Assembly (NCBI GenBank): GCA_964482135.1
Contig: CAYZWF010000002.1
Coordinates: 6,639-70,638 of the forward strand
Source of the DNA: an uncultured Rhodospirillaceae bacterium
GTDB taxonomy: Bacteria; Pseudomonadota; Alphaproteobacteria; UBA11136
Length of the DNA stretch: 64,000 nucleotides
Direction of reading: 5' to 3'
The notes under the pieces are model-generated. The model saw nothing but the letters and a program-made list of their open reading frames with translations. It searched no databases and was not told the DNA's origin. Positions within the stretch are counted from its first letter, which is position 1; every line of letters begins with the position of its first letter. A program made the translations under genes and the position numbers. Shown piece by piece: positions 3,317 to 25,966 of the stretch.

Positions 3317-4936
3317 TCAGTGGCTGGTGCCCGAAGAGCGGGTGATCTTGTTGTAGACGTTGTATTTACCCGAGGGCTTGTTCATGGGTATCCGTTTCAC
3401 CTCTTCTAAAGTGGCGGCGTCGTAGACCACCAGCGCGCCGTCTTCCTCCCATATGCTGACCAGGGCGTAGCGGCCGTCGCGGGTGAATTCCACATGGGCG
3501 GCGGTCTTGCCCGGCGCCGGGCGCAGGGTCTTGACGATCTCCAGCGTTTTCTTGTCGATCACGTGGAGGGCGTCGCGGTTGGGGCCGAAGAAGACATCGG
3601 CCCAGGCATAGGGCGTGTTTTCGTGGCTGCGCATGAAAAAGCCCGGCCCCAGGGTCTCGATGCGCTTGACGGTCTCCCAGTTTTCCATGTCGATGACGCT
3701 GATCATGTTCTCCCGCAGATGGGGCGTGGCCATGACTTCCCTGCCGTCGTGCCGCCAGTAAATGCCGGAGCCGAGATGGGGCATGCCGTCAAGCGCCAAG
3801 TCGGCGATCTTTCTCCTGACATCGAGGTTATAGACCGCCCCGCCCTTGCCGTCGCGGGAGGCGCCGATGACCTCGGCATAGGCGGGATCAAAGAAAAAGT
3901 CATCGAGGTAATCCTCGAGCTTGATACGGCGCCGGGCGAAGGGCTGTTCCTCGACGACGATTCCTTCCACCTGGCCGCTACGGTAGCTGTGGACGAAGTT
4001 TCCATAGACCGGGGCGGCGTTTGGATCGTAGGAGAGTTCCCATACCTCCTTGAAGTCCTTAAGGGCGGCGATGAAGCTTTTACGCGGGGCCGCGTCGTAA
4101 ACCGCGCTCACCCGGGAGCTCGCGCCCTTGCCGTCATCGACGGAGATGACCCGGAACAGCGACAGATCGGCGGCGTTGAGGACCACCAGGCTATGGGGCA
4201 GGTAGTTGCCCACCATGACCCATTTCCCGTCCGATGAGACGGCGATATTGCGGGTATTGATGCCGGCGCGGATTTCGGCCACCGGCTTGAGGCCGTAAAG
4301 GTCGTATTTGCTGACCCAGCCGTCGCGCGAGCCGAGATAGACGAAACGGCCGTCGGGCGAATATTTGGCGCCGCCATGGAGGGCGAAGCGGGAAGGAAAA
4401 CGCCACAGGGGCTCGAAACTGTCGCCGTCGAGAATGGTGACGTGGTGATCGCCGGTCTCCACCACGGTGAACAGGTTCAAGGGGTCGGCGCCGTGAACGG
4501 GGGCCTCGGGCAGCCCGGCCACGGCGTTGTGGACCACATGAGTGGCGGCGATTTCGGTGCGGCCCCATTGCGGCAGGTGCGGAAGAGGGGTGTAGATCAA
4601 TTCCGTCAACGCCGCGATTTCGTCGGCGGAGAGCTTGCCGGAGAATCCCTGCATCTGGGTGGCGATGCGGCCCTCGGCGGTGACTTTGCGGGCTTCGTCC
4701 TTCTTTAGCCGTTTCAGGTTCTCCGGGAGCAGGGCCGGGCCTTCGCCGCCCAGCCTGTCGGAACCGTGGCATTCGCCGCAGTGGGTGGCGTAGAGGGCCT
4801 TTACATTGGAAGCGCCGTTGGGGGGGGCGTCGCCGGGAACGGCCTTGAGCGTGACTTCCGCTTTAACGGTGGCTGTAACGGTGGCGGGCAGGAGCCACGC
4901 CAGCACCGCCAGCAGGAGGCTAAATCGCGGCGGCAT
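3317..4936 (-). CDS. nirN: Cytochrome cd1-like protein NirN (c-heme domain plus 8-bladed propeller; dihydro-heme d1 dehydrogenase family)
   Basis: Signal peptide MPPRFSLLLAVLAWLL. Heme c motif CGECHG followed by a cd1 beta-propeller (VVETGDHHVTILDGDSFEP...). The 741-aa ORF in the track is an artefactual 5' extension; the real ATG is at 4936. Last gene after nirJ. Confidence 0.8.
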   Translation of the reverse strand: MPPRFSLLLAVLAWLLPATVTATVKAEVTLKAVPGDAPPNGASNVKALYATHCGECHGSDRLGGEGPALLPENLKRLKKDEARKVTAEGRIATQMQGFSGKLSADEIAALTELIYTPLPHLPQWGRTEIAATHVVHNAVAGLPEAPVHGADPLNLFTVVETGDHHVTILDGDSFEPLWRFPSRFALHGGAKYSPDGRFVYLGSRDGWVSKYDLYGLKPVAEIRAGINTRNIAVSSDGKWVMVGNYLPHSLVVLNAADLSLFRVISVDDGKGASSRVSAVYDAAPRKSFIAALKDFKEVWELSYDPNAAPVYGNFVHSYRSGQVEGIVVEEQPFARRRIKLEDYLDDFFFDPAYAEVIGASRDGKGGAVYNLDVRRKIADLALDGMPHLGSGIYWRHDGREVMATPHLRENMISVIDMENWETVKRIETLGPGFFMRSHENTPYAWADVFFGPNRDALHVIDKKTLEIVKTLRPAPGKTAAHVEFTRDGRYALVSIWEEDGALVVYDAATLEEVKRIPMNKPSGKYNVYNKITRSSGTSH

Positions 4937-10146: not shown

Positions 10147-11784
10147 ATGAGAAAATATATCTTAGCTGTGTCGGCGGTTGCCATGGCGGCGGGTCTTGCC
10201 ATGGGATCCTCGGCCCCGGCGATAGCTGCCGACAAGGCCGCTCCGACAATGTCGAAGGAAGACTTTGATGAGGCCAAGACCTTGTATTTCCAGAGATGCG
10301 CCGGTTGTCACGGAGTATTGCGCAAGGGAGCGACGGGAAAAAACCTGGAACCCGGTCCCTCGAAAAACAGTAAGGGCACTCTCGAACTCGGCCAGAAGCG
10401 TCTCGTAAAAATTATCACCCTCGGTACCGAGGGCGGCATGAACAACTTCGATGATATCTTCACCAAGGACCAGATCGCCAAGCTGGCGACCTATATCCAG
10501 CTGCCTCCTCCCGAGCCGCCGGAGATGTCCCTGGCGCAGATGAAGGAAAGCTGGAAGGTACACGTTAAGCCCGAAGACCTTCCCAAGAAGCCCCAACATA
10601 CCGGTAACTGGGAGAACTACTTCCTGGTCATCCTTCGTGACGCCGGCAAGATAGGGGTCATCGACGGCGACACCAAGGAAGTGGTGGCCAAGATCGACAC
10701 CGGCTACGCCATCCATGTGATTAAGGAATCCTCCGACGGCCGCTTCTGGTACACCCAGGGCCGTGACGGCAAGATGACGAAAATCGATCTGTGGATGGAC
10801 CCGCCGCAGGTGGTCGCCGAGGCCCGAGTCGCCTATGACGCCCGCGACGTGGCCGTTTCTCACTTCGGAGAATGGAAGGACAAATACGTGATCGGCGGTG
10901 GCTACTGGCCGCCTCACTTTGTCATTCTCGACGCCGAGACCATGGAGCCTCTTAAGGTAATCTCCACCCGTGGCGTCAACGTGGACGGTGAATATGTGGA
11001 GGAGGCGCGTGTGGCGGCTATTTACAACACGCCAGAGGCCCCGACCTGGATCGTCGCCGTCAAGGAGCTGGGTCAGCTGTGGCAGGTGGATTACAGCGAC
11101 ATCGACAATCTCCAGATTAACCAGATCGACAGCCACAAATTCCTCCATGACGGCTTCTTCGATCCTACCTTGCGTTATTTCCAGATCGCCGCCAACGCCT
11201 CCAACCGGATGGAGATCATGGATTCCATTGACCGTAAGTTCGTGGCCTCGATCGAAACCGGCAAGAAGCCTCATCCCGGCCCCGGCGCCAACTGGGTGGA
11301 TCCTAAATGTGGTCCGGTGGGCGGCACCGTACATCTGGGTGAGGGCAAGATGACCGCCTGGGGCAACGATCCCAAGGGCCATCCTGATCAGGCCTGGAAG
11401 GTTTGTTACAAGGCCGCCACCGACGGTCCGGGTCTGTTTATCCGCACCCATCCCAACGTGTCTTTCGTGGCCATGGATCAGACCAAGCATCCCGAACCGG
11501 AAGTTCAGCAGTCGATCAAGATTCTCGACAAGGAGACCCGGAAGATGATCAAGACCATCCGGGTTACCGAGCTGGAGAAAGCCGTCGCCGTCCATATCGA
11601 ATTCAACAAGGGCGGCAGCGAGATGTGGGTATCGGTCTGGGCCCGTGGCGGCAAAAAGGACTGGCTCAAGGGTGAAATCGTCGTTTACGACACCAAGACC
11701 CTTGAGGAAAAAACCCGGATTAAGAATCTTGAAACACCGACCGGCAAATTCAACGTCTATAACAGGATGCACCACAAGACGTGA
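10147..11784 (+). CDS. nirS: Cytochrome cd1 nitrite reductase NirS (copy 1)
   Basis: Signal peptide, heme c CAGCHG, then d1 propeller with conserved cd1 segments. 545 aa. Confidence 0.9.
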   Translation: MRKYILAVSAVAMAAGLAMGSSAPAIAADKAAPTMSKEDFDEAKTLYFQRCAGCHGVLRKGATGKNLEPGPSKNSKGTLELGQKRLVKIITLGTEGGMNNFDDIFTKDQIAKLATYIQLPPPEPPEMSLAQMKESWKVHVKPEDLPKKPQHTGNWENYFLVILRDAGKIGVIDGDTKEVVAKIDTGYAIHVIKESSDGRFWYTQGRDGKMTKIDLWMDPPQVVAEARVAYDARDVAVSHFGEWKDKYVIGGGYWPPHFVILDAETMEPLKVISTRGVNVDGEYVEEARVAAIYNTPEAPTWIVAVKELGQLWQVDYSDIDNLQINQIDSHKFLHDGFFDPTLRYFQIAANASNRMEIMDSIDRKFVASIETGKKPHPGPGANWVDPKCGPVGGTVHLGEGKMTAWGNDPKGHPDQAWKVCYKAATDGPGLFIRTHPNVSFVAMDQTKHPEPEVQQSIKILDKETRKMIKTIRVTELEKAVAVHIEFNKGGSEMWVSVWARGGKKDWLKGEIVVYDTKTLEEKTRIKNLETPTGKFNVYNRMHHKT

Positions 11785-11817: not shown

Positions 11818-11866
11818 CAAAAAAGAAGAGGATGGGTGCCTGTTGGCATCTGTCCTCTTCTTTTCC
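11818..11866 (+). terminator. Rho-independent terminator after nirS
   Basis: AAGAAGAGGA ... TCCTCTTCTT 10-bp stem (11823-11832 and 11853-11862) followed by TTTT. Confidence 0.5.
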
Positions 11867-11967
11867 GTTCTACTGAGAGAAGACTGTGGCTTGCAATAGG
11901 CAACAGGCGCACCTTAAAACAGAATAGGTGCACCTTAAACTGGGCTCACGGGGAGAGATGACGGAGC

Positions 11968-13734
11968 ATGATTTCAGATAAATTTCGCTATTTTCTGACA
12001 AACCGGCTCGTCAAGTCGATCATCATGACGCCGGTTCGTTCCACGATTATCGGCGCGGCGGCCTTTTTCGCGATCGGAATCGTTTTCTGGGCCGGTCTGA
12101 ATGTGGCTATAGAATCCACCGATAATATGGAGTTCTGCATCGGCTGCCATGTGATGGAGAGCACCGTTTATCAGGAATATAAAAAGACTCCCCACTATCA
12201 GAATCGCACCGGAGTGCAGGCCACCTGTCCCGACTGTCACGTTCCCCGGCCCTGGCTCGACAGAGCCCTGCGCAAGCTGCGGGCCAGCAACGAGATATTG
12301 CACTGGATGTTGGGCAGCATAGACACGCCCGAAAAATTCGAGGCCAAACGCCTCACCCTGGCCAAGCATGTGTGGAAATCCATGAAGGAAACGGATTCCC
12401 GCGAGTGCCGCAACTGCCATTCCTGGGAAGCCATGAAGGGTGCAAAGCAGCAGCGCCGGGCGAGAAAACAGCATGAACTGGCGCTTATAGACAACCTGAC
12501 CTGTATTGATTGCCATAAGGGCATTGCTCACAGAGCCGTGCATAAGCTTCTCGATGATGACGAGGATTTCTACGACGGCAAGTCCGATCCACGTAAGCTC
12601 GATGTTCTTACCGCCGCCGAGGCCGCGGTCGCGGAGAAAGAAGAAGCTGCCGCTGCCGCGGCATCGGCGGAGGAAGCGCCCGTAGCCGAGGCGCCCGGCA
12701 AGGCGGAAGCCGCGGAAAGCACGCCCGCATCCGCACCCTCACCCACACCATCAGCAGGCGGCGAAGCAGCGGGCGGCGGACCTGCCTGGGGCAATATTCC
12801 GGGCCGCGATATCGTTGTCTTCTATCCGGGGCAGACCTCCATGGAGTGGATCCTCAAGGGGAGCGACCATGGCGGCGCGCGCGCCATCAAGAAACTGGGC
12901 GATCCCTGCGCCGAGTGCCATGAGGGTGAGCAGGATAAAATGGGCAGGATTCTGGCCAGCGGTGAGAAAGCCGAGGCTACGCCCATTCCCGGCAAACGCG
13001 GCCATATCAAGGTCAACGTCAAGGCCGCCCATGACGGCGAAAATCTCTACATGCATTTCCAATGGCCGGGAACCGAGCATACGCCGGCGCCCTTCGTGGA
13101 CGGCGGCAAGATGGACCCCGATAATCAGGTTAAGCTTGCCGTTATGTTCGATGACGGAAAGGTGGACGCTGCCGACAGCGCGGGCTGTTGGGTCACCTGT
13201 CATCACGATTCCCGCTATATGCCCGATCATCCTGACGCCGCCGCCGTCACCGCCGCGGGCGATCTCGCCAAACGGCTCGGTGCGGCCGACGGGATCACCA
13301 AGTATCTGAAGGAAACGCGCAGCGAAATCGAGATCAAGGGCAACGACGACAAGCCCCGTGGCGGTTGGGACAAGCTCAAGCCGGCATCCGAGATCGAGGA
13401 GCTGAAAGGTGCCGGGGCTTTCATGGACCTGATGCGCGTTAAGATCGGCGAGGGTAAATCGGAAAGCGGTTCCGTGCTGGAACATCGGGCCATGAGCGGG
13501 GAGTCGGGCATCACCTTCAGCGGAGGCCTTGCCGACGGCGTCTGGTCCGTGACCGTGACCCGCCCCCTCAAGGCGGACAAGCCCGGCGGCGTCACCATCG
13601 AGCCGGGCAAGCTCTATACGGTGGGGATCGCCATTCACGACGATTACACCCTGGCCCGGTTCCACCATGTTTCACTGGAATACTCGCTGGGACTCGACAA
13701 CGAAGAGGCTGGCATTAATGCCATCAAGATGTAA
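11968..13734 (+). CDS. nirT: NapC/NirT-family membrane tetraheme cytochrome c fused to a C-terminal extra heme-binding domain (EB_dh/DOMON-like)
   Basis: N-terminal TM helix then four CxxCH motifs (CIGCH, CPDCH, CRNCH, CIDCH). An Ala/Pro-rich linker follows. The about 330-aa C-terminal domain carries CAECH and a CWVTCH motif. Confidence 0.75.
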   Translation: MISDKFRYFLTNRLVKSIIMTPVRSTIIGAAAFFAIGIVFWAGLNVAIESTDNMEFCIGCHVMESTVYQEYKKTPHYQNRTGVQATCPDCHVPRPWLDRALRKLRASNEILHWMLGSIDTPEKFEAKRLTLAKHVWKSMKETDSRECRNCHSWEAMKGAKQQRRARKQHELALIDNLTCIDCHKGIAHRAVHKLLDDDEDFYDGKSDPRKLDVLTAAEAAVAEKEEAAAAAASAEEAPVAEAPGKAEAAESTPASAPSPTPSAGGEAAGGGPAWGNIPGRDIVVFYPGQTSMEWILKGSDHGGARAIKKLGDPCAECHEGEQDKMGRILASGEKAEATPIPGKRGHIKVNVKAAHDGENLYMHFQWPGTEHTPAPFVDGGKMDPDNQVKLAVMFDDGKVDAADSAGCWVTCHHDSRYMPDHPDAAAVTAAGDLAKRLGAADGITKYLKETRSEIEIKGNDDKPRGGWDKLKPASEIEELKGAGAFMDLMRVKIGEGKSESGSVLEHRAMSGESGITFSGGLADGVWSVTVTRPLKADKPGGVTIEPGKLYTVGIAIHDDYTLARFHHVSLEYSLGLDNEEAGINAIKM

Positions 13735-14176
13735 GCAGCCACGCCGCAGGAGTTTCCGCTTCTTGTATATGGCGGCTATGGCAAGCGCGGGACTGGCCTT
13801 TGCGGCGATACTGATCACGCCGCCGGTTGCACTGGCGGACGAGGAAAGAGAGAGAATCTGCGCCGAGGCTGAGAAACGCTATCAGGAACTATTCGATGGG
13901 GCGGGTGGCGATGTGTCCGTCGTGAAAATGTACAAATACAACTTTTGCCCCATGGACCTGACCGTGACGGCCGGGACCACGGTGCGTTGGATCAATGTGG
14001 ACAAGCGCACCAGCCACAGTGTCTGGCTTAAGGTGGCGGGGATTGAGGAAACGGATCGTCTATTTCCCGAAGAAAGCTGGGAGCACCAGTTTACGGATAG
14101 CGGAGAATACCCCTATCTGTGCGGACCCCATGGGGAACAGGAGAGCATGACCGGTAAAGTTACGGTTGTTCCCTGA
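13718..14176 (+). CDS. Type-1 copper cupredoxin (pseudoazurin/plastocyanin-like electron carrier)
   Basis: Ligand pattern H...C-G-P-H...M (TSHSVW ... YLCGPHGEQESMTG). N-terminal hydrophobic signal. Start is ambiguous (13718 or 13769); the 13667 start in the track overlaps nirT. Confidence 0.65.
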   Translation: MPSRCKQPRRRSFRFLYMAAMASAGLAFAAILITPPVALADEERERICAEAEKRYQELFDGAGGDVSVVKMYKYNFCPMDLTVTAGTTVRWINVDKRTSHSVWLKVAGIEETDRLFPEESWEHQFTDSGEYPYLCGPHGEQESMTGKVTVVP

Positions 14177-14268: not shown

Positions 14269-14724
14269 GTGAAAAAAGTTCCCGTCCAATGGACCGACGA
14301 GTTAAGCGTCGGTGTCGATATTATCGACAAGGACCATCAGAAATTATTTTCATTATTCAAACAGCTTCGCTCGCTTAATGAAGAAGGCGATCGGACCGCG
14401 GCTATCGTTGATGTTCTTTCGGAGCTTTATGATTACACGGACTATCACTTCAAGCGGGAAGAGGCGGTGATGGAAGTCTGCAGTTATCCCCATTTAAACA
14501 GACACAGACAGGTCCACACAGCCTTTGCAGCCGGCGTCAAACGCTTCCTCGACGCCGCCGCCGATGGCGCCGATGAATTCATGGTGAACAGCCTGAGCGA
14601 ATTTCTGGAGGATTGGCTCAAGGAGCATATCATGGGGATGGACAAGGATTACGAAACCTGGACAGTGGGCAAGAACAACGAAATCAACGAGGTGAACCTG
14701 GATTTCGAGGCAAGCAGGAAATAA
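14269..14724 (+). CDS. Bacteriohemerythrin (hemerythrin-like metal-binding protein)
   Basis: Hemerythrin motifs W-x-D-x-L-x-V-G-x-x-x-ID-x-x-H...L, HFxxEE, H...H...E. GTG start with GGAGG ribosome-binding site. Confidence 0.8.
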   Translation: MKKVPVQWTDELSVGVDIIDKDHQKLFSLFKQLRSLNEEGDRTAAIVDVLSELYDYTDYHFKREEAVMEVCSYPHLNRHRQVHTAFAAGVKRFLDAAADGADEFMVNSLSEFLEDWLKEHIMGMDKDYETWTVGKNNEINEVNLDFEASRK

Positions 14725-14837: not shown

Positions 14838-16616
<1,779 letters not shown>

Positions 16617-20266: not shown

Positions 20267-20662
20267 TCAGCCGTGAAGTTTGTGCAGGGGGGCGTCCATC
20301 TTCCTGAAATGGGTGGAAAACCACCCCCGCAGTTCGTCGGCGAACTGGTCCTCGGACTGGAAATAGGTGCCGTCCTCGTGGCGGTCCATGATGTCACGGA
20401 TTTGATCGAGAAGGTATTCGTGTTCCTTTTTGTGGGCGTTGAAGCCGCTATAGTTTTCGTCGCGCATGGTCTTTTCCTCGAGCGCGAAGTGGAGGGAGAT
20501 ACGGGCGAAAAGCTCACCCAGAAAATCGCCGACCGATTCGCGGGAGCCCTGGGACATCATTTCGCCGTGGAGTTCGTTGATAAGCGAAATCAACTGTTCA
20601 TGTTCGTAATCCACATGGGGGATTCCGGTCTTGAACTCCTCTTTCCATTCGATCAGCGTCAT
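20267..20662 (-). CDS. Bacteriohemerythrin (second copy); last gene of the HCO operon
   Basis: Hemerythrin ligand motifs (HVDYEHEQL, HFALEE, HKKEHEYL). Confidence 0.8.
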   Translation of the reverse strand: MTLIEWKEEFKTGIPHVDYEHEQLISLINELHGEMMSQGSRESVGDFLGELFARISLHFALEEKTMRDENYSGFNAHKKEHEYLLDQIRDIMDRHEDGTYFQSEDQFADELRGWFSTHFRKMDAPLHKLHG

Positions 20663-20682
20663 GGCGACCCCCGGTCGTTTTG

Positions 20683-21201
20683 TTATTTTATGACAAAGTT
20701 CGCCGATGGGGTGGAAAAAACCACGGCCAGATTGCGGGTCGGTTCCAGATCTACCTCCTGGGTGGTCTCATAATCGAAACCCTCTGCGCGGCCGCTGTCG
20801 CGCATGCGCATATCCAGGCGGTGATGCCCGGCGGGCACGGTGATGCGTTCGTAAAAATAGGATGGTCCGTCGCTCGACAGGCCGGAGGGTGGCTGTTCGC
20901 GGCTGAAAATAAGTTCTCCATTGAGAAGAATCTCCACCAAGACGGGGTGGCGCTCGCGCGGGCAGAGCTGTAGCGCGCGCCGGGTGGTGCGGGTCTCCTT
21001 GATGCCGGCGAACTGGCGGATGTCGCATTCGCCTTTGTGTTTTCCACCGTGACTGATGGAAAGTTTCATCACCGCCGTGTCTGGGGCGAGCCGTATATAG
21101 GCCGGGCTGTTGGAGAAATATCCCAACACCACCGCCAGGGCCAGATAGGCCACGCCCTGTCCGAGGAATTTCATCGCTCTAGACATGAGGCTACGAGGCA
21201 T
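20683..21201 (-). CDS. Hypothetical membrane-anchored protein (one N-terminal TM helix)
   Basis: ORF with hydrophobic N-terminus (GVAYLALAVVLGYF). No recognisable motif. Overlaps the upstream gene by 11 nt, so probably co-transcribed. Confidence 0.5.
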   Translation of the reverse strand: MPRSLMSRAMKFLGQGVAYLALAVVLGYFSNSPAYIRLAPDTAVMKLSISHGGKHKGECDIRQFAGIKETRTTRRALQLCPRERHPVLVEILLNGELIFSREQPPSGLSSDGPSYFYERITVPAGHHRLDMRMRDSGRAEGFDYETTQEVDLEPTRNLAVVFSTPSANFVIK

Positions 21202-22786
21202 GGGGGTGCTCCTTTTCTCCGTCCCCCTCTTTCGCGGCGGATGTTTTCATGGCCATTAAATGATCGCGGAATGCCTTCAGGCGGTCGGCCAGTTCCCCGG
21301 GTTCGGTGGGGGCGAGCCAGGCGGTGGCGATACGTTCGCGCGGCACCCGGTCGCGCAGATAGGGATCCCGCTTGCCGCCGATTCTCAACTCCGTCCATTC
21401 CACACCGAGCCGGTGAAAACACTCGTTCTCGCGACAGCCGGCAAGCATGATGCCGTCGGCGTGGCCGCGGGTGAGGACGTAATCCATAAAGGCGGGCGGC
21501 AGCATGGCGATGCAGGGAAGGCTGAACACGGCGACGTCGGGTGAGGCCAGTTTGCCGATATCGTTGCCATGGTCGCAGCCGAAAATAACGATCTTCGATT
21601 CGCCTTCGAGACGCGCAAGAGCCTGATCCACGTTCTTGCGAAGCTTGTCCAGGGTGAATTGGGGCAGGTCGATACCGGTCACCAGTTCCGTTGAGGTGCG
21701 GAAGGGCGTGGAGGCGGGACAGGACCCCACGCAGATGCCGCAGGCGGTGCATAGATCGCTCGAAACAAGGGCAATGGAGGGGAAGGGGCGTCCGTCGTCG
21801 CGCGGCCCCATCACCACCGCCCCATAGGGGCAGTCCTCGAAACAACGGGTGCAGCCGTTGCAATTGGCGGCATCCACCACCGCCGGGCTGGAGCGTTTGA
21901 AGGGCGGCGCCCAGGGCAGGATGCTGAGCACGGTGCTGGTTCCCACCAACAGCAGCCAGACCCATCCCGCCGACCATATCTCGATCAGTGGATAGAATCC
22001 GAGATAGAACCAGTCGAGGCTGACCTTTTCCACCACCATGCCGAGATCAGCCGGGGGGTGACTCAGCGCCGGTTTATAGAGCGCGAGCAGGAAAAGCATG
22101 CCCAGGGTACCGGCGGCCAGCGCCAGGGGCGGGTTGACCCTGGGACGGCTGATGCGCAGCAGGTGAATCCACATGGCAAACAGCAGGAACAGGGGCAGGG
22201 CGATGTGGAGGAAGACGAGCAGCGAGAAGAAACGGTCGCCGAGGCTGCCTCTGGTCAGGAAATTATTGGCGATGGGCTCGCCGAACAGGGGCAGCCAGTC
22301 CATCCATTCGAAGGTGGCCACGGCGATATACTGGGCCAGCTGGTCCCATACCAGCCAATAGCCGTTGATGCCGGAAGCAAAGGCAAGCCAGAGGATGGGG
22401 ATACCGCTGAACCAGGAAAACCAGCGTACGCTGCGGTAACGGTCGAGGACGAACTCGCGCATCAGATGCAGCATCATGGTAATCACCAGCGCATCGGAGG
22501 CATAGCGGTGGAGGCTGCGCATGATTCCGCCCAGATACCACTGTTCCACGGTGAGATACTCGATGGAGTCGTAGACGCCATTGATGCTGGTCTCGAAGAC
22601 GATATAGAGGTAGATGCCGGTGGCGGCGACGATCCAGAAATAGAAGTAGCCCAGCGCGCCGAGCTGGGTCAGGGGGTTGAGCTTGGGTCCGAAGGCCGCG
22701 TCGAACCAGCCTTCGACCTGCATGAGTCCGTTTTGCGCGGTCCGCCGCAAAGGGTGGGGCTGGGAAGGTGAGGCATTTCCGTTCAC
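21191..22786 (-). CDS. Triple-domain fusion: cytochrome b/b6-like transmembrane domain + 2x[4Fe-4S] ferredoxin + MvhD/FlpD-like domain
   Basis: N-terminus resembles cytochrome b (GGIMRSLHRYASDALVITMMLHLM vs [23 protein letters not shown]). Middle has CNGCTRCFEDCP and CTACGICVGSCP. C-terminus matches the methyl-viologen-reducing hydrogenase delta-subunit family (IVIFGCDHG ... GIMLAGCRENECFH). ATGA overlap with the SCO1 stop. Confidence 0.7.
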   Translation of the reverse strand: MNGNASPSQPHPLRRTAQNGLMQVEGWFDAAFGPKLNPLTQLGALGYFYFWIVAATGIYLYIVFETSINGVYDSIEYLTVEQWYLGGIMRSLHRYASDALVITMMLHLMREFVLDRYRSVRWFSWFSGIPILWLAFASGINGYWLVWDQLAQYIAVATFEWMDWLPLFGEPIANNFLTRGSLGDRFFSLLVFLHIALPLFLLFAMWIHLLRISRPRVNPPLALAAGTLGMLFLLALYKPALSHPPADLGMVVEKVSLDWFYLGFYPLIEIWSAGWVWLLLVGTSTVLSILPWAPPFKRSSPAVVDAANCNGCTRCFEDCPYGAVVMGPRDDGRPFPSIALVSSDLCTACGICVGSCPASTPFRTSTELVTGIDLPQFTLDKLRKNVDQALARLEGESKIVIFGCDHGNDIGKLASPDVAVFSLPCIAMLPPAFMDYVLTRGHADGIMLAGCRENECFHRLGVEWTELRIGGKRDPYLRDRVPRERIATAWLAPTEPGELADRLKAFRDHLMAMKTSAAKEGDGEKEHPHAS

Positions 22787-23661
22787 GGGGAGCCGTCCTT
22801 GGAACGCCGCCGCCGGGATCGGACTAGGAAAATCAGTGTGCCGCCAATACAGATTCCGCCGATGGCCATGCCCACGAACAGGGAATAATCAAAACGATAG
22901 CGGCCGCTCGCCGGATCGTAGACGGTGCAAAACAGTTTCACCCGGTTGGCGATCCCCTCGAAGCTGGTGAAAGAGGCGCCGGTTCCGTAAATGAGGTTTT
23001 TGAGTGGCTCCACCAGATGGGGGGGGCTGAAATCCTCACCGTATATCTGGTTGGTAACACGTCCTTCGGCATCGGCCACCGTGACCTGGCTCAGATGGTC
23101 GAAGCCTTTGGGAGATTCCTTGAAGATGAAGCCCAATTCCTTGCCCAAGGCGGCGATGGTCGGGGCATCGGCGCTGAGGAAGAGCCATCCCTCGTCCCCG
23201 ACGCCGTGACTTTTTGCGAATTGGCCCATGCGTTGGGGCGTATCCGTGGGCACGTCGAAGCCGATACTGACAACATGGAAGGAGTCGGCGCCCATGGCTT
23301 CACGCGCCGTCTCCACGGCCCGCCCCAGGGTCTCGGTGATGAGGGGGCAGGCATGGGCGCAACTTGAATAGATGAGGCTGATGACCAGGGGTGTGCCACG
23401 GAAATCGGAAAGCCGCACGGTTTTTCCCGACGCGTCGGTAAAGGTGGCATCGCCGATCACCCTGCCGACGGCGGCCTGGCTGATGGCAAGGGCGTTCTCG
23501 GAATCGAAATCGTTTTCATCTTCATGTGTGGGCGACATATGGGTATTGCCGCCGTGCCCCGCCAGCCCCGGCATGGGGATCAGGCCGAGGAAAAGAAATG
23601 CAGCCGCAAGAATCGATTTCACGTGGCGTCTCCCAGGGATGAGTATATGCAGAGATACCAA
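22783..23661 (-). CDS. SCO1/SenC-family copper chaperone (thioredoxin-like, CxxxCP) with C-terminal TM helix
   Basis: Signal/TM region, CxxxC motif SSCAHACP, and a conserved His (DHLSQV region). Confidence 0.75.
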   Translation of the reverse strand: MVSLHILIPGRRHVKSILAAAFLFLGLIPMPGLAGHGGNTHMSPTHEDENDFDSENALAISQAAVGRVIGDATFTDASGKTVRLSDFRGTPLVISLIYSSCAHACPLITETLGRAVETAREAMGADSFHVVSIGFDVPTDTPQRMGQFAKSHGVGDEGWLFLSADAPTIAALGKELGFIFKESPKGFDHLSQVTVADAEGRVTNQIYGEDFSPPHLVEPLKNLIYGTGASFTSFEGIANRVKLFCTVYDPASGRYRFDYSLFVGMAIGGICIGGTLIFLVRSRRRRSKDGSP

Positions 23662-23719
23662 GAGCGGTGCGACTTATGTCGCACCGCTCTCAGTATACAG
23701 GATTATGGCGCTTGAGGCT

Positions 23720-25417
23720 TTAGCTGAGGCCCCAGGTTTCCGCCAGGTACTTCCAGTTGACGAAGTAATAGAGGACGAAGGTAACCAGGAACACCATGGC
23801 CAGGGCAAAGGTTCCCGGAACCTCCAGATGGTCGGCGCTGCCGTACTGCGCCGCCGCGGTCGTGGGCGGTGCTTCGGCTGCCGGCGCGGGTGCGGCTTCG
23901 CCCTTGGTCTTGCCAAAGAGCAGAGAGCCAACCACCACGATGATGAACATGGCGCCTCCCAGAGAGGCAACCACGGCGCTGACGCCGTTGAGACCCAACA
24001 TGAGATAGGCGGCGCCGGGGAAGTCCATGCTCATGGCGGCGTCGCTGAAGGTAATATCCCAGTGCCGCCGGGGCACGCCCAGAGTGCCGGCTCCCATCAT
24101 GAAGACGGAAAGTCCCGTCACTCCGATGGCGAAGACGTAGGGTTGCCACTGCGCCATTTTCGGGAACAGGATTTCCTTGCGGAAGATAAGCGGCACCAGA
24201 AGATAGGTGACGGCCATGAAGGCCAGGGTCGTTCCCGCCACTACGGTGCCGTGGAAATGGCCCGGCACATAAAGGGTGTTGTGCATGATCAGGTTGATTT
24301 GTTCGGTGCCGAGAATGACACCGGTGATGCCACCCAGGAACCCGAACATGACCAGCGAGAGGAACATGCCGGAAAAGGCGGGATTGCCCCATGGCGCCTT
24401 GCGCAGCCATTCGAACAGGCCCTTGTTGAAGCCCTTTTTACGCTGCGCCGCCTCGATTGAGCCAGGCACCGTAAGGCCGTGGATCATGCTCGCCAGCACC
24501 GCCAGATACATGGCGTAGCTGGTGTTGAAGATCTTGTATTCCGAACTCAAGCCCGGCTCCACCAGCAGGTGATGGACGCTGCCCAGTTGCAGGAACAGGA
24601 TATAGAGAAGGAAAGCCGTGCGGCTGACCTTCTCGGACAGGGGCTTGGCGCCGAAGAGCACGGCGGCGATCAGGTACCATACCGCCACATGGGCCGAGAC
24701 GTTGATCTGTTGCGAGGAATGGCCCATGGCCCACCACACCACCTTGTACATGAGGGGGTCGATGTAGCTGACGAGACCCACCGACCACATCAGGGTGGGG
24801 ATGAGAATGATAGCGCCCGAGGCGATGGTGAAAACGGCGATGATGGCCGCAGTTATGGCGCCGAAAGTGACCAGCGGGACCGAACCCTCGTAGGTCTTTT
24901 CATCCTTGGCTATGACCAGGGTGCCGAAGAAACAGCAACAGCCCAGCAGGGCGCCTACGGCGAACAGGATGATCCCGAGATAGAACAGGGGATCGGCCTG
25001 CATGGGCACGTAAGAGGTGAACATGACGCTGGATTCGCCCATCAGCACGACAACGTTGGTCATGGCGGCGCCCACCAGCATCAGCCAGAAGCCGACCCAG
25101 GCCAGTTTAGGCGCTGCCAGACGGCAGCCCAGCAGAATAGCGGACGCAAAGTAGAGTACCGCCATTTCGAAGAAGATCATCCACACCAGCAACACGTCGA
25201 GACCGTGTGCGGTCAAGGCCAGATAGAACCAGTCGTCGGGCAGGAAATGCACCGCCGGCCAGCGGGTCAGCGCCACGGAGAGACCGAACAGTCCGCCGAC
25301 GAGCAGGAAGACCACGGCGACAACGGCGTTGGCCTTGATCAGCTTTTCGGCGGGAAGATGGACCTTGAGCCCGGTATCGGGGCAGGTGCGAAATTGTGTG
25401 TCGTTTGCCATGTCCAT
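23720..25417 (-). CDS. Heme-copper oxidase superfamily subunit I (B-family-like; candidate CuA-type NO reductase catalytic subunit)
   Basis: 12+ TM helices. CuB/heme ligands present: helix VI GH (WAMGHSSQQ), helix VII HH (SVHHLL), helix X HxH (HFHGT). The cross-link Tyr is absent at H+4 (Q instead). 565 aa, like Thermus ba3 subunit I. Confidence 0.75.
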   Translation of the reverse strand: MDMANDTQFRTCPDTGLKVHLPAEKLIKANAVVAVVFLLVGGLFGLSVALTRWPAVHFLPDDWFYLALTAHGLDVLLVWMIFFEMAVLYFASAILLGCRLAAPKLAWVGFWLMLVGAAMTNVVVLMGESSVMFTSYVPMQADPLFYLGIILFAVGALLGCCCFFGTLVIAKDEKTYEGSVPLVTFGAITAAIIAVFTIASGAIILIPTLMWSVGLVSYIDPLMYKVVWWAMGHSSQQINVSAHVAVWYLIAAVLFGAKPLSEKVSRTAFLLYILFLQLGSVHHLLVEPGLSSEYKIFNTSYAMYLAVLASMIHGLTVPGSIEAAQRKKGFNKGLFEWLRKAPWGNPAFSGMFLSLVMFGFLGGITGVILGTEQINLIMHNTLYVPGHFHGTVVAGTTLAFMAVTYLLVPLIFRKEILFPKMAQWQPYVFAIGVTGLSVFMMGAGTLGVPRRHWDITFSDAAMSMDFPGAAYLMLGLNGVSAVVASLGGAMFIIVVVGSLLFGKTKGEAAPAPAAEAPPTTAAAQYGSADHLEVPGTFALAMVFLVTFVLYYFVNWKYLAETWGLS

Positions 25418-25423
25418 GTCCCC

Positions 25424-25966
25424 CTATTTATCAACCACGACAATTTTGCCCAGCATGGTGTGGTGGCCAATGCCGCAAAATTCATTGCAAACGATACCAA
25501 ATTCCCCGCTCTCGGTCGGCGTGATCGTTGCCACCATGTCGTATCCGGGATGAATCTGTAAATTGAGATTGACCGGTTGCAGGGAAAATCCGTGCAGCCA
25601 GTCCAGCGAGGCGAGATGCAGACGGTAGGTTTCCCCTTTTTGCAGTTCGAAAACGGGCCACCACTCCCACAGGCGGGCGATCATATAGATGTCGCTGCCG
25701 GGCGGGGGACTCACCACCGGCACGTCGGTCTCGCCCCAGGTGCCGACGGTGTATTCGGCCGCCGCGGCTTCCGCCTTCGCCGCGTAAACGTCGGAATTGA
25801 TCCGGTAGCCTTCGGTGGGTGGGTTCTGCTGCCCTTCCAGATGCCAGTAAGGCATCATGAAAAACATGATGATGCACCAGATCAGGCCGATGCCGATCCA
25901 CAGGACTTCGTTGCGTCCGATGGGCTCGTTCCACCAGATACGTTGTTCGGGAGGTGAGATGGCCAT
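25424..25966 (-). CDS. Heme-copper oxidase subunit II with CuA centre (no cytochrome c domain)
   Basis: Single TM helix plus cupredoxin with a complete CuA motif H...CNEFCGIGHHTM. 180 aa, comparable to ba3 subunit II. Confidence 0.8.
   Translation of the reverse strand: MAISPPEQRIWWNEPIGRNEVLWIGIGLIWCIIMFFMMPYWHLEGQQNPPTEGYRINSDVYAAKAEAAAAEYTVGTWGETDVPVVSPPPGSDIYMIARLWEWWPVFELQKGETYRLHLASLDWLHGFSLQPVNLNLQIHPGYDMVATITPTESGEFGIVCNEFCGIGHHTMLGKIVVVDK

Follow-up and report, generated by a model that had tools for sequence, protein, structure and literature searches.

A predicted NirT–NirB fusion cytochrome encoded between nirS and a cupredoxin gene in an uncultured Rhodospirillaceae bacterium

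The route by which electrons reach cytochrome cd1 nitrite reductase (NirS) differs among denitrifiers. Two proteins that may belong to such a route, NirT and NirB, were described in 1991. The reduction of nitrite by strain ZoBell is reported to need nirT (PMC13086519). In Pseudomonas stutzeri RCH2 the gene Psest_0817, located two loci after nirS and annotated as 'Ethylbenzene dehydrogenase', resembles nirS in its fitness values (PMC5554334). A passage of a 2026 paper names a 'fused NirTB' for Halomonas sp. 2A and regards it as an indication that the two proteins function as a unit (PMC13086519). The gene presented here, nirTB, is predicted to encode such a fusion. It was found in a stretch of 64,000 nucleotides, called the window below, from an uncultured Rhodospirillaceae bacterium (GenBank assembly GCA_964482135.1, contig CAYZWF010000002.1, positions 6,639 to 70,638 of the forward strand).

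Genetic data are available for two pairs of proteins from Azospira suillum PS, PcrQ/PcrO and NapC/NapO. Single mutants in napC or napO do not grow with nitrate as the sole acceptor, and the double mutants pcrQ napC and pcrO napO do not grow anaerobically (PMC5845722). The pairs cross-complement and are interchangeable between the pathways, and both members of a pair are needed (PMC5845722).

Domains and haem motifs of NirTB

NirTB is read as a NirT–NirB fusion because its C-terminal domain is of the NirB/PcrO/NapO type, which is an EbdC-like dihaem cytochrome c. Judged from the sequence, the protein is predicted to be anchored in the membrane, to face the periplasm and to carry six covalently bound haems. 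The corresponding motifs are CIGCH, CPDCH, CRNCH and CIDCH at residues 57, 87, 147 and 179 of the NirT part, followed by CAECH at residue 314 and CWVTCH (CX3CH) at residue 407. The protein has a single hydrophobic helix, placed before the first haem motif. Residues 26-44 form the top 19-residue Kyte-Doolittle stretch (2.14), and all 12 stretches above 1.6 cluster there. Residues G37, F40, W41 and G43 of this helix are kept across 79 fused proteins that were aligned.

The match of the NirT part to PF03264 has 220.2 bits against a cut-off of 24.1 and covers profile positions 12-172 of 174 (residues 30-191). M63, which belongs to the first motif (CXXCHxM), and also H76, H169 and H188, candidates for distal ligands, are invariant in the 79 fused proteins, which likewise keep all six haem motifs. 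The scores with the NCBIfam models are 234.9 bits for TIGR02161 napC_nirT (cut-off 310.6) and 209.5 bits for NapC PRK10617 (cut-off 349). A TorC-like identity was considered and rejected, the TorC model giving 216.9 bits against a cut-off of 478.2 over profile positions 22-180 of 387 only. Since the TorC model covers the tetrahaem part alone, NirTB is not a TorC-type pentahaem protein. Since the scores lie under the napC_nirT, NapC and TorC cut-offs, the NirT part is a member of the family and not an equivalog of any named enzyme. A search of the PDB with the single sequence matched the NirT part weakly to NrfH and gave no match for the C-terminal module, for which a profile was needed.

The two parts are joined by a low-complexity linker rich in Ala (28%), Glu (14%) and Pro (10%), in which the 79 aligned proteins have no conserved positions. 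The distance from the fourth to the fifth haem motif is variable in these proteins (120-161 residues), and that from CXXCH to CWXXCH within the module is 93-104 residues.

The module matches the EB_dh family (PF09459) over residues 273-569 with an E-value of 4.1e-33 and 115.8 bits, the cut-off being 33.3. An AlphaFold2 model based on 121 module sequences (mean pLDDT 88.7, pTM 0.89) is a beta-sandwich with helical insertions that bear both cysteine motifs. In a Foldseek comparison with solved structures, EbdC (2ivf_C, E 9e-10) and NxrC (7b04_C, E 7.4e-8) were on top, and proteins containing CBM9 and DOMON ranked lower. The sequence profile gave E-values of 1.6e-8 and 5.4e-6 in the PDB for EbdC/NxrC. 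The sequence identity to these two is only 10-16%, so that a NirB-type protein has no solved structure.

Twelve residues are invariant in the 121 module sequences: C314, C317, H318, C407, C411, H412, M418, Y446, R532, H557, R564 and H566. Because both cysteine motifs with their histidines, as well as M418, H557 and H566, belong to this set, two covalently bound haems c are predicted in the module, with M418, H557 and H566 as the candidates for distal ligands; a third haem, bound non-covalently, may also be present. The CXXCH and CWXXCH motifs of EbdC-like cytochromes are also conserved in P. stutzeri NirB (PMC3884062). Residues 314-340 (window 12907-12987) show a weak profile match (E 0.035) to the segment of the Methylophilus cytochrome c'' (1e8e) that binds haem, perhaps by chance.

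Much of this layout had been proposed in an earlier note made from the letters of the DNA alone. The tetrahaem NapC/NirT part, the linker rich in Ala, Pro and Glu, the C-terminal CAECH and atypical CWVTCH, the conserved His and Met residues and the place of the gene between nirS and a cupredoxin gene were all found again. The profile search that it suggested for the C-terminal region gives the EB_dh family, and a frameshift between the domains was rejected, as set out below. Its view that the protein unites NirT with an otherwise separate dihaem carrier agrees with the split pair described below, with the published NirB motifs (PMC3884062) and with the RCH2 annotation (PMC5554334). It had also compared the C-terminal domain with EB_dh and DOMON domains together. 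The EB_dh part of this comparison stands and the DOMON part is weak: NirTB has no match to PF03351 at E<=0.01, two relatives score 19.9 and 25 bits, under the cut-off of 32.7, and the DOMON-containing dopamine beta-hydroxylase has a distant fold resemblance (E 0.018).

Distribution, split relatives and number of modules

The fusion is not a sequencing artefact, since the reading frame is kept in a metagenome protein (P0001), in most of the best genome loci and in Azospirillum brasilense Sp7. P0001 is a protein of 588 residues, 99% identical to NirTB, on a metagenome contig (L001) with the same neighbours and the same gene call. A frameshift or an assembly error was therefore ruled out. The distribution was studied with a profile of the module that was run against a single genome of each species; 554 loci contained a relative, and the best 80 of these were analysed. 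NirT is fused to one module in 78 of these 80 loci (552-655 residues). The gene is directly preceded by nirS in 73 of the 78 and directly followed by a cupredoxin gene in 70. The hosts among the best loci include many cultured species of Ruegeria, as well as Pseudovibrio, Roseibium, Shimia, Aliiroseovarius, Parasedimentitalea, Thalassotalea, Thalassomonas and Denitrobaculum. NirTB is 57-60% identical to its nearest relatives.

The order nirS, nirTB, cupredoxin was also found in the loci L001-L004 and on plasmid p4 of A. brasilense Sp7, which gave the top match in a plasmid collection. The protein of p4, WP_059399791.1 (540 residues), is listed in RefSeq as 'NapC/NirT family cytochrome c'; its identity is 59.5% over 79% of the query, and it has the same six motifs. 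On p4 it follows a cytochrome D1 protein and precedes a 'plastocyanin/azurin family copper-binding protein' and a second cytochrome D1 protein.

In many marine Alphaproteobacteria, and in some Gammaproteobacteria, the nirS cluster as a rule has a gene of this architecture. The earlier note had set the protein against a normal NapC/NirT length of about 200 residues. It is not unusual, given the 78 loci and the mention of the fusion in the literature (PMC13086519). The fusion is widespread, routinely annotated and already in print, and NirTB is a further member of a known, biochemically unstudied family.

The module also occurs alone. When the protein library was clustered at 50% identity, 509 representative relatives of the module were found at E <= 0.001. 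Many of them are stand-alone proteins of about 300-345 residues with a signal peptide, both cysteine motifs and EB_dh as the only domain. The source name given for several homologues is 'cytochrome C552', presumably an older designation of NirB. In another nir cluster a gene for a NapC/NirT protein of 204 residues is followed after 25 nt by one for an EB_dh protein of 341 residues. The latter falls in a cluster (at least 90% identity) whose representative, P0126, is 52% identical to the module of NirTB. The two genes adjoin nirS and are followed by nirE, nirC, nirF, nirDLGH, nirJ and nirN. This pair is the split form of NirTB.

Relatives outside this setting were observed as well. In Marinobacterium aestuariivivens (L005, 5378-7865) unfused NapC-like and EB_dh dihaem proteins are located beside a multihaem cytochrome and a porin of the MtrB/PioB type, and in another locus (L007, 5403-6960) a stand-alone module adjoins a Ni_hydr_CYTB cytochrome b. 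Beyond denitrification too, it seems that membrane proteins which react with quinol use the module as a general adaptor.

The number of modules is variable. Among the best 120 proteins of the first protein search, 119 have 840-970 residues, eight haem motifs and, after NirT, two EB_dh modules in tandem (P0002-P0120; loci L002-L004). Their sources are Sedimenticola, Terasakiella, Thiodiazotropha and tubeworm symbionts. They top that search only because a second module doubles the score; most of the genome representatives have a single module. The tandem repeats of one protein are 60-97% identical to each other and about 54% identical to the module of NirTB, which indicates concerted evolution. 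In a neighbour-joining tree of the NirT domain (175 residues) the one- and two-module forms are interleaved, and hence the module number has changed repeatedly. NirTB clusters in this tree with two-module proteins like those of Terasakiella, and its module is equidistant from both repeats of the two-module relatives. It is possible but unproven that NirTB was derived from a two-module protein by loss of a repeat, the tree of 175 residues being weak.

Possible route of electrons to NirS

It is probable that the NirT domain oxidizes quinol and that six haems lead the electrons to NirS, directly or via the cupredoxin, independently of cytochrome bc1. Family membership suggests that quinol would be oxidized by the NapC/NirT domain at the periplasmic face of the membrane. 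The four NirT haems would then pass electrons to the two presumed c-type haems of the module, which is tethered by the flexible linker of about 80 residues. From the order of the genes, the module would deliver them to NirS either directly or through the cupredoxin. The whole would be a dedicated branch from quinol to nitrite without need for the bc1 complex, and NirTB would be the one-polypeptide form of P. stutzeri nirT and nirB and of the Azospira pairs PcrQ/PcrO and NapC/NapO. The earlier note had spoken of a self-contained route from quinol to NirS. Such a route is plausible, being suggested by the order of the genes and by genetic studies of other organisms.

Several points weigh against this route. 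Many nirS denitrifiers that lack NirTB use bc1 together with cytochrome c551 or pseudoazurin, so that NirS does not need NirTB in general. The quinol dehydrogenase activity is expected at the level of the family, the NirT part scoring below the NCBIfam NapC/NirT and NapC cut-offs. The role of the cupredoxin is likewise suggested by the order of the genes, and the expression of nirTB may be partly uncoupled from that of nirS by the strong hairpin that separates the two genes. The module has been likened to P. stutzeri NirB by published motifs (PMC3884062), by the RCH2 annotation (PMC5554334) and by the source name 'cytochrome C552' of homologues; no Stutzerimonas was present among the best 80 of the 554 genome loci, nor did a Stutzerimonas protein appear among the 120 best matches of a profile search with the stand-alone modules. 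In the literature searched, no biochemical characterisation of any fused homologue was found.

The same hairpin would permit nirTB to be expressed below nirS, as would suit a protein whose main task is to activate cytochrome cd1 by reduction or to condition it, the bulk of the electrons arriving via bc1 and soluble carriers. The work of Zajicek et al., as cited in a passage of PMC13086519, favours such a role, and the cluster also includes nirC, a gene for a cytochrome c. However, a tethered wire of six haems with a strictly co-conserved cupredoxin seems elaborate for activation alone, and the homologous NapC/NapO of Azospira is required for growth with nitrate as the sole acceptor (PMC5845722). 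A mainly activating role is considered unlikely. NirTB and the cupredoxin might instead deliver electrons elsewhere in the periplasm, for example to the second NirS, to NosZ or to an NO reductase, or might carry electrons from a periplasmic donor to the quinone pool. The window does contain a second nirS, nosR, nosL and a cluster of the haem-copper oxidase type, and unfused or stand-alone modules occur beside the MtrB/PioB-type porin with its multihaem cytochrome and beside cytochrome b. The closest relatives, however, are directly after nirS in 73 of 78 cases, nirS and the cupredoxin being the neighbours for which linkage was tested, and a different partner is less probable still.

The module shares its family and fold with EbdC and NxrC, which are haem b subunits. 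This allows the view that it binds non-covalent haem b, instead of or besides haems c, or that it is a sensor or binding domain. A homologue was termed 'heme b/c-containing' by Melnyk et al. (PMC3884062), and the three invariant candidates for axial ligands (M418, H557 and H566) exceed the need of just two c-type haems. The single haem b of EbdC and NxrC has Lys and Met as ligands (PMC8840923). The profile alignment, at 10-16% identity, stops at residue 200 of the EbdC chain opposite H566-H567 of NirTB, and the next position is V568, not Lys. The Lys ligand of EbdC is presumably Lys201 and would then be expected opposite V568, so that its region aligns with His566-His567-Val568. The invariant M418 is a possible counterpart of the Met ligand of EbdC. 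Both cysteine motifs, histidines included, show no variation in the 121 sequences, and PcrO and NapO were later described as dihaem c-type cytochromes (PMC5845722). A module that binds haem b, or that is a sensor or binding domain, is very improbable, and the route through six haems c to NirS is the one preferred here.

Neighbouring features and described systems

The positions of the features are collected in Table 1.

Table 1. Features of the nirTB region, with positions in the window
Feature	Position	Strand	Basis or remark
nirTB, fused open reading frame	11968-13734	+	588 aa and stop codon, ATG start
N-terminal membrane anchor helix (residues 26-44, TIIGAAAFFAIGIVFWAGL)	12043-12099	+	Kyte-Doolittle
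NapC/NirT tetrahaem domain (residues 30-191)	12055-12540	+	PF03264, E 2e-65
Four CXXCH motifs	12136-12150, 12226-12240, 12406-12420, 12502-12516	+	
Ala/Glu/Pro-rich low-complexity linker (residues 192-272, 81 residues)	12541-12783	+	Composition
NirB-type EbdC-fold module, predicted dihaem c (residues 273-588, 316 residues)	12784-13731	+	PF09459
CAECH	12907-12921	+	Module haem motif
CWVTCH	13186-13203	+	Module haem motif
nirS, cytochrome cd1 nitrite reductase, 545 aa	10147-11784	+	Cytochrom_D1, E 1.1e-112, and N-terminal cytochrome c domain
Perfect 20-bp hairpin with U-rich tail, between nirS and nirTB	11821-11864	+	RNA fold
Cupredoxin, small blue copper protein, 135 aa, signal peptide	13769-14176	+	Copper-bind, E 1.6e-7

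The end of nirS and the start of nirTB are 183 nt apart. The hairpin located between them has a folding energy of -34.4 kcal/mol and a z-score of -7.0 relative to shuffles; a simple terminator scan did not flag it, and an Rfam scan of the whole window gave no match. Partial termination or stabilisation of the mRNA may be its function. On its 3' side a direct repeat, G(C/T)GCACCTTAAA, occurs twice at window 11908-11939, just 5' of the purine-rich ribosome-binding site GGGGAGAG, which lies about 10 nt 5' of the nirTB ATG. The hairpin and the repeat together may form a partial terminator plus a regulatory site.

The cupredoxin gene begins about 30 nt 3' of nirTB with ATG at 13769, or alternatively with TTG at 13763. 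Its type-1 copper ligands H83, C118, H121 and M127 are invariant in 77 of 77 cupredoxin sequences. The protein is a candidate for a soluble carrier of electrons from NirTB to NirS.

Two full-length nirS paralogues, at 10147-11784 (+, 545 aa) and 14838-16583 (-, 581 aa), flank nirTB, the cupredoxin gene and a hemerythrin gene, and nirN is found at 3317-4936 (-). The nir/nos region has bacteriohemerythrin genes at 14269-14724 (+, 151 aa) and 20267-20662 (-, 131 aa), whose products may sense or buffer O2 or NO. The second of them belongs to a block of six genes at 20267-25966 (-). The block also codes for a protein of 172 residues without a family, a fusion of 531 residues, a SCO1/SenC protein, a COX1-family protein far under every oxidase cut-off, and a CuA/CoxB-like protein of 180 residues. 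The 531-residue protein consists of a cytochrome b, two 4Fe-4S motifs and FlpD. Most of this block adjoins nirS and the two-module gene nirTBB in L002, where the hemerythrin and CoxB-like genes were not seen. The block may resemble the norSY-senC-orf1 ('sNOR') type of putative NO reductase cluster.

The fusion is a natural indication that NirT and NirB act as one unit, a point already made in the literature (PMC13086519). Since this point is published and the fused gene is common in genomes, the window adds a further example and no new idea. The tight linkage with the cupredoxin suggests a complete branch from quinol to nitrite that bypasses bc1, which would affect the energy yield and the accumulation of nitrite. 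If so, the presence or absence of the branch would set the partitioning of electrons and the accumulation of nitrite in nirS denitrifiers. The NirB module would represent c-type cytochromes of a structurally new class, in which an EbdC/DOMON-like beta-sandwich bears two haems c, and changes back and forth between one module and two would adjust how far the wire reaches. It is rather doubtful that the fusion with its cupredoxin branch, the new class and the tuning by module number all hold together. The remaining interest lies in the NirB-type cytochromes, fused or stand-alone, which are without a solved structure or a measured function. A. brasilense Sp7 and Ruegeria are tractable hosts that carry the fusion.

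The annotated fused homologues are among the described systems closest to NirTB. They share its architecture and its neighbours, with nirS before and a copper protein after the gene, and WP_167685786.1 of Parasedimentitalea denitrificans has the same four haem motifs, linker, CXXCH and CWxxCH. They differ from NirTB by sequence divergence and linker length alone (total 540-655 residues). In the nirSTBM cluster of P. stutzeri, nirS is likewise followed by a tetrahaem NapC/NirT protein and then by a dihaem protein of the EB_dh family (PMC3884062, PMC5554334, PMC13086519). There NirT and NirB (cytochrome c-552) are two proteins, while NirTB is one polypeptide with a linker of 81 residues, and in P. 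stutzeri the next gene codes for cytochrome c551 (nirM) and not for a cupredoxin. The PcrQ/PcrO and NapC/NapO pairs of Azospira also combine a quinol dehydrogenase of the NapC/NirT type with an EbdC-like dihaem cytochrome c (PMC5845722, PMC3884062, PMC4623255), but as separate proteins that supply perchlorate and nitrate reductases and not NirS.

The module has the Pfam family and the beta-sandwich fold in common with EbdC and NxrC. It differs from them in that inserted segments of helix carry two haem c motifs with cysteines, and from EbdC by His residues near the position where the Lys ligand would align. EbdC and NxrC belong to molybdoenzyme complexes of the type II DMSO reductase family and are encoded with alpha and beta subunits, and no molybdoenzyme gene was found among the genes examined at window 1968-36571, which are of the nir, nos, copper-protein, hemerythrin, haem-copper-oxidase and housekeeping types. 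In TorC and DorC an extra C-terminal haem domain hands electrons to the terminal reductase. These proteins resemble NirTB in the addition of such a domain to a NapC/NirT tetrahaem domain; in NirTB, however, the added domain has the unrelated EB_dh fold and two haem motifs.

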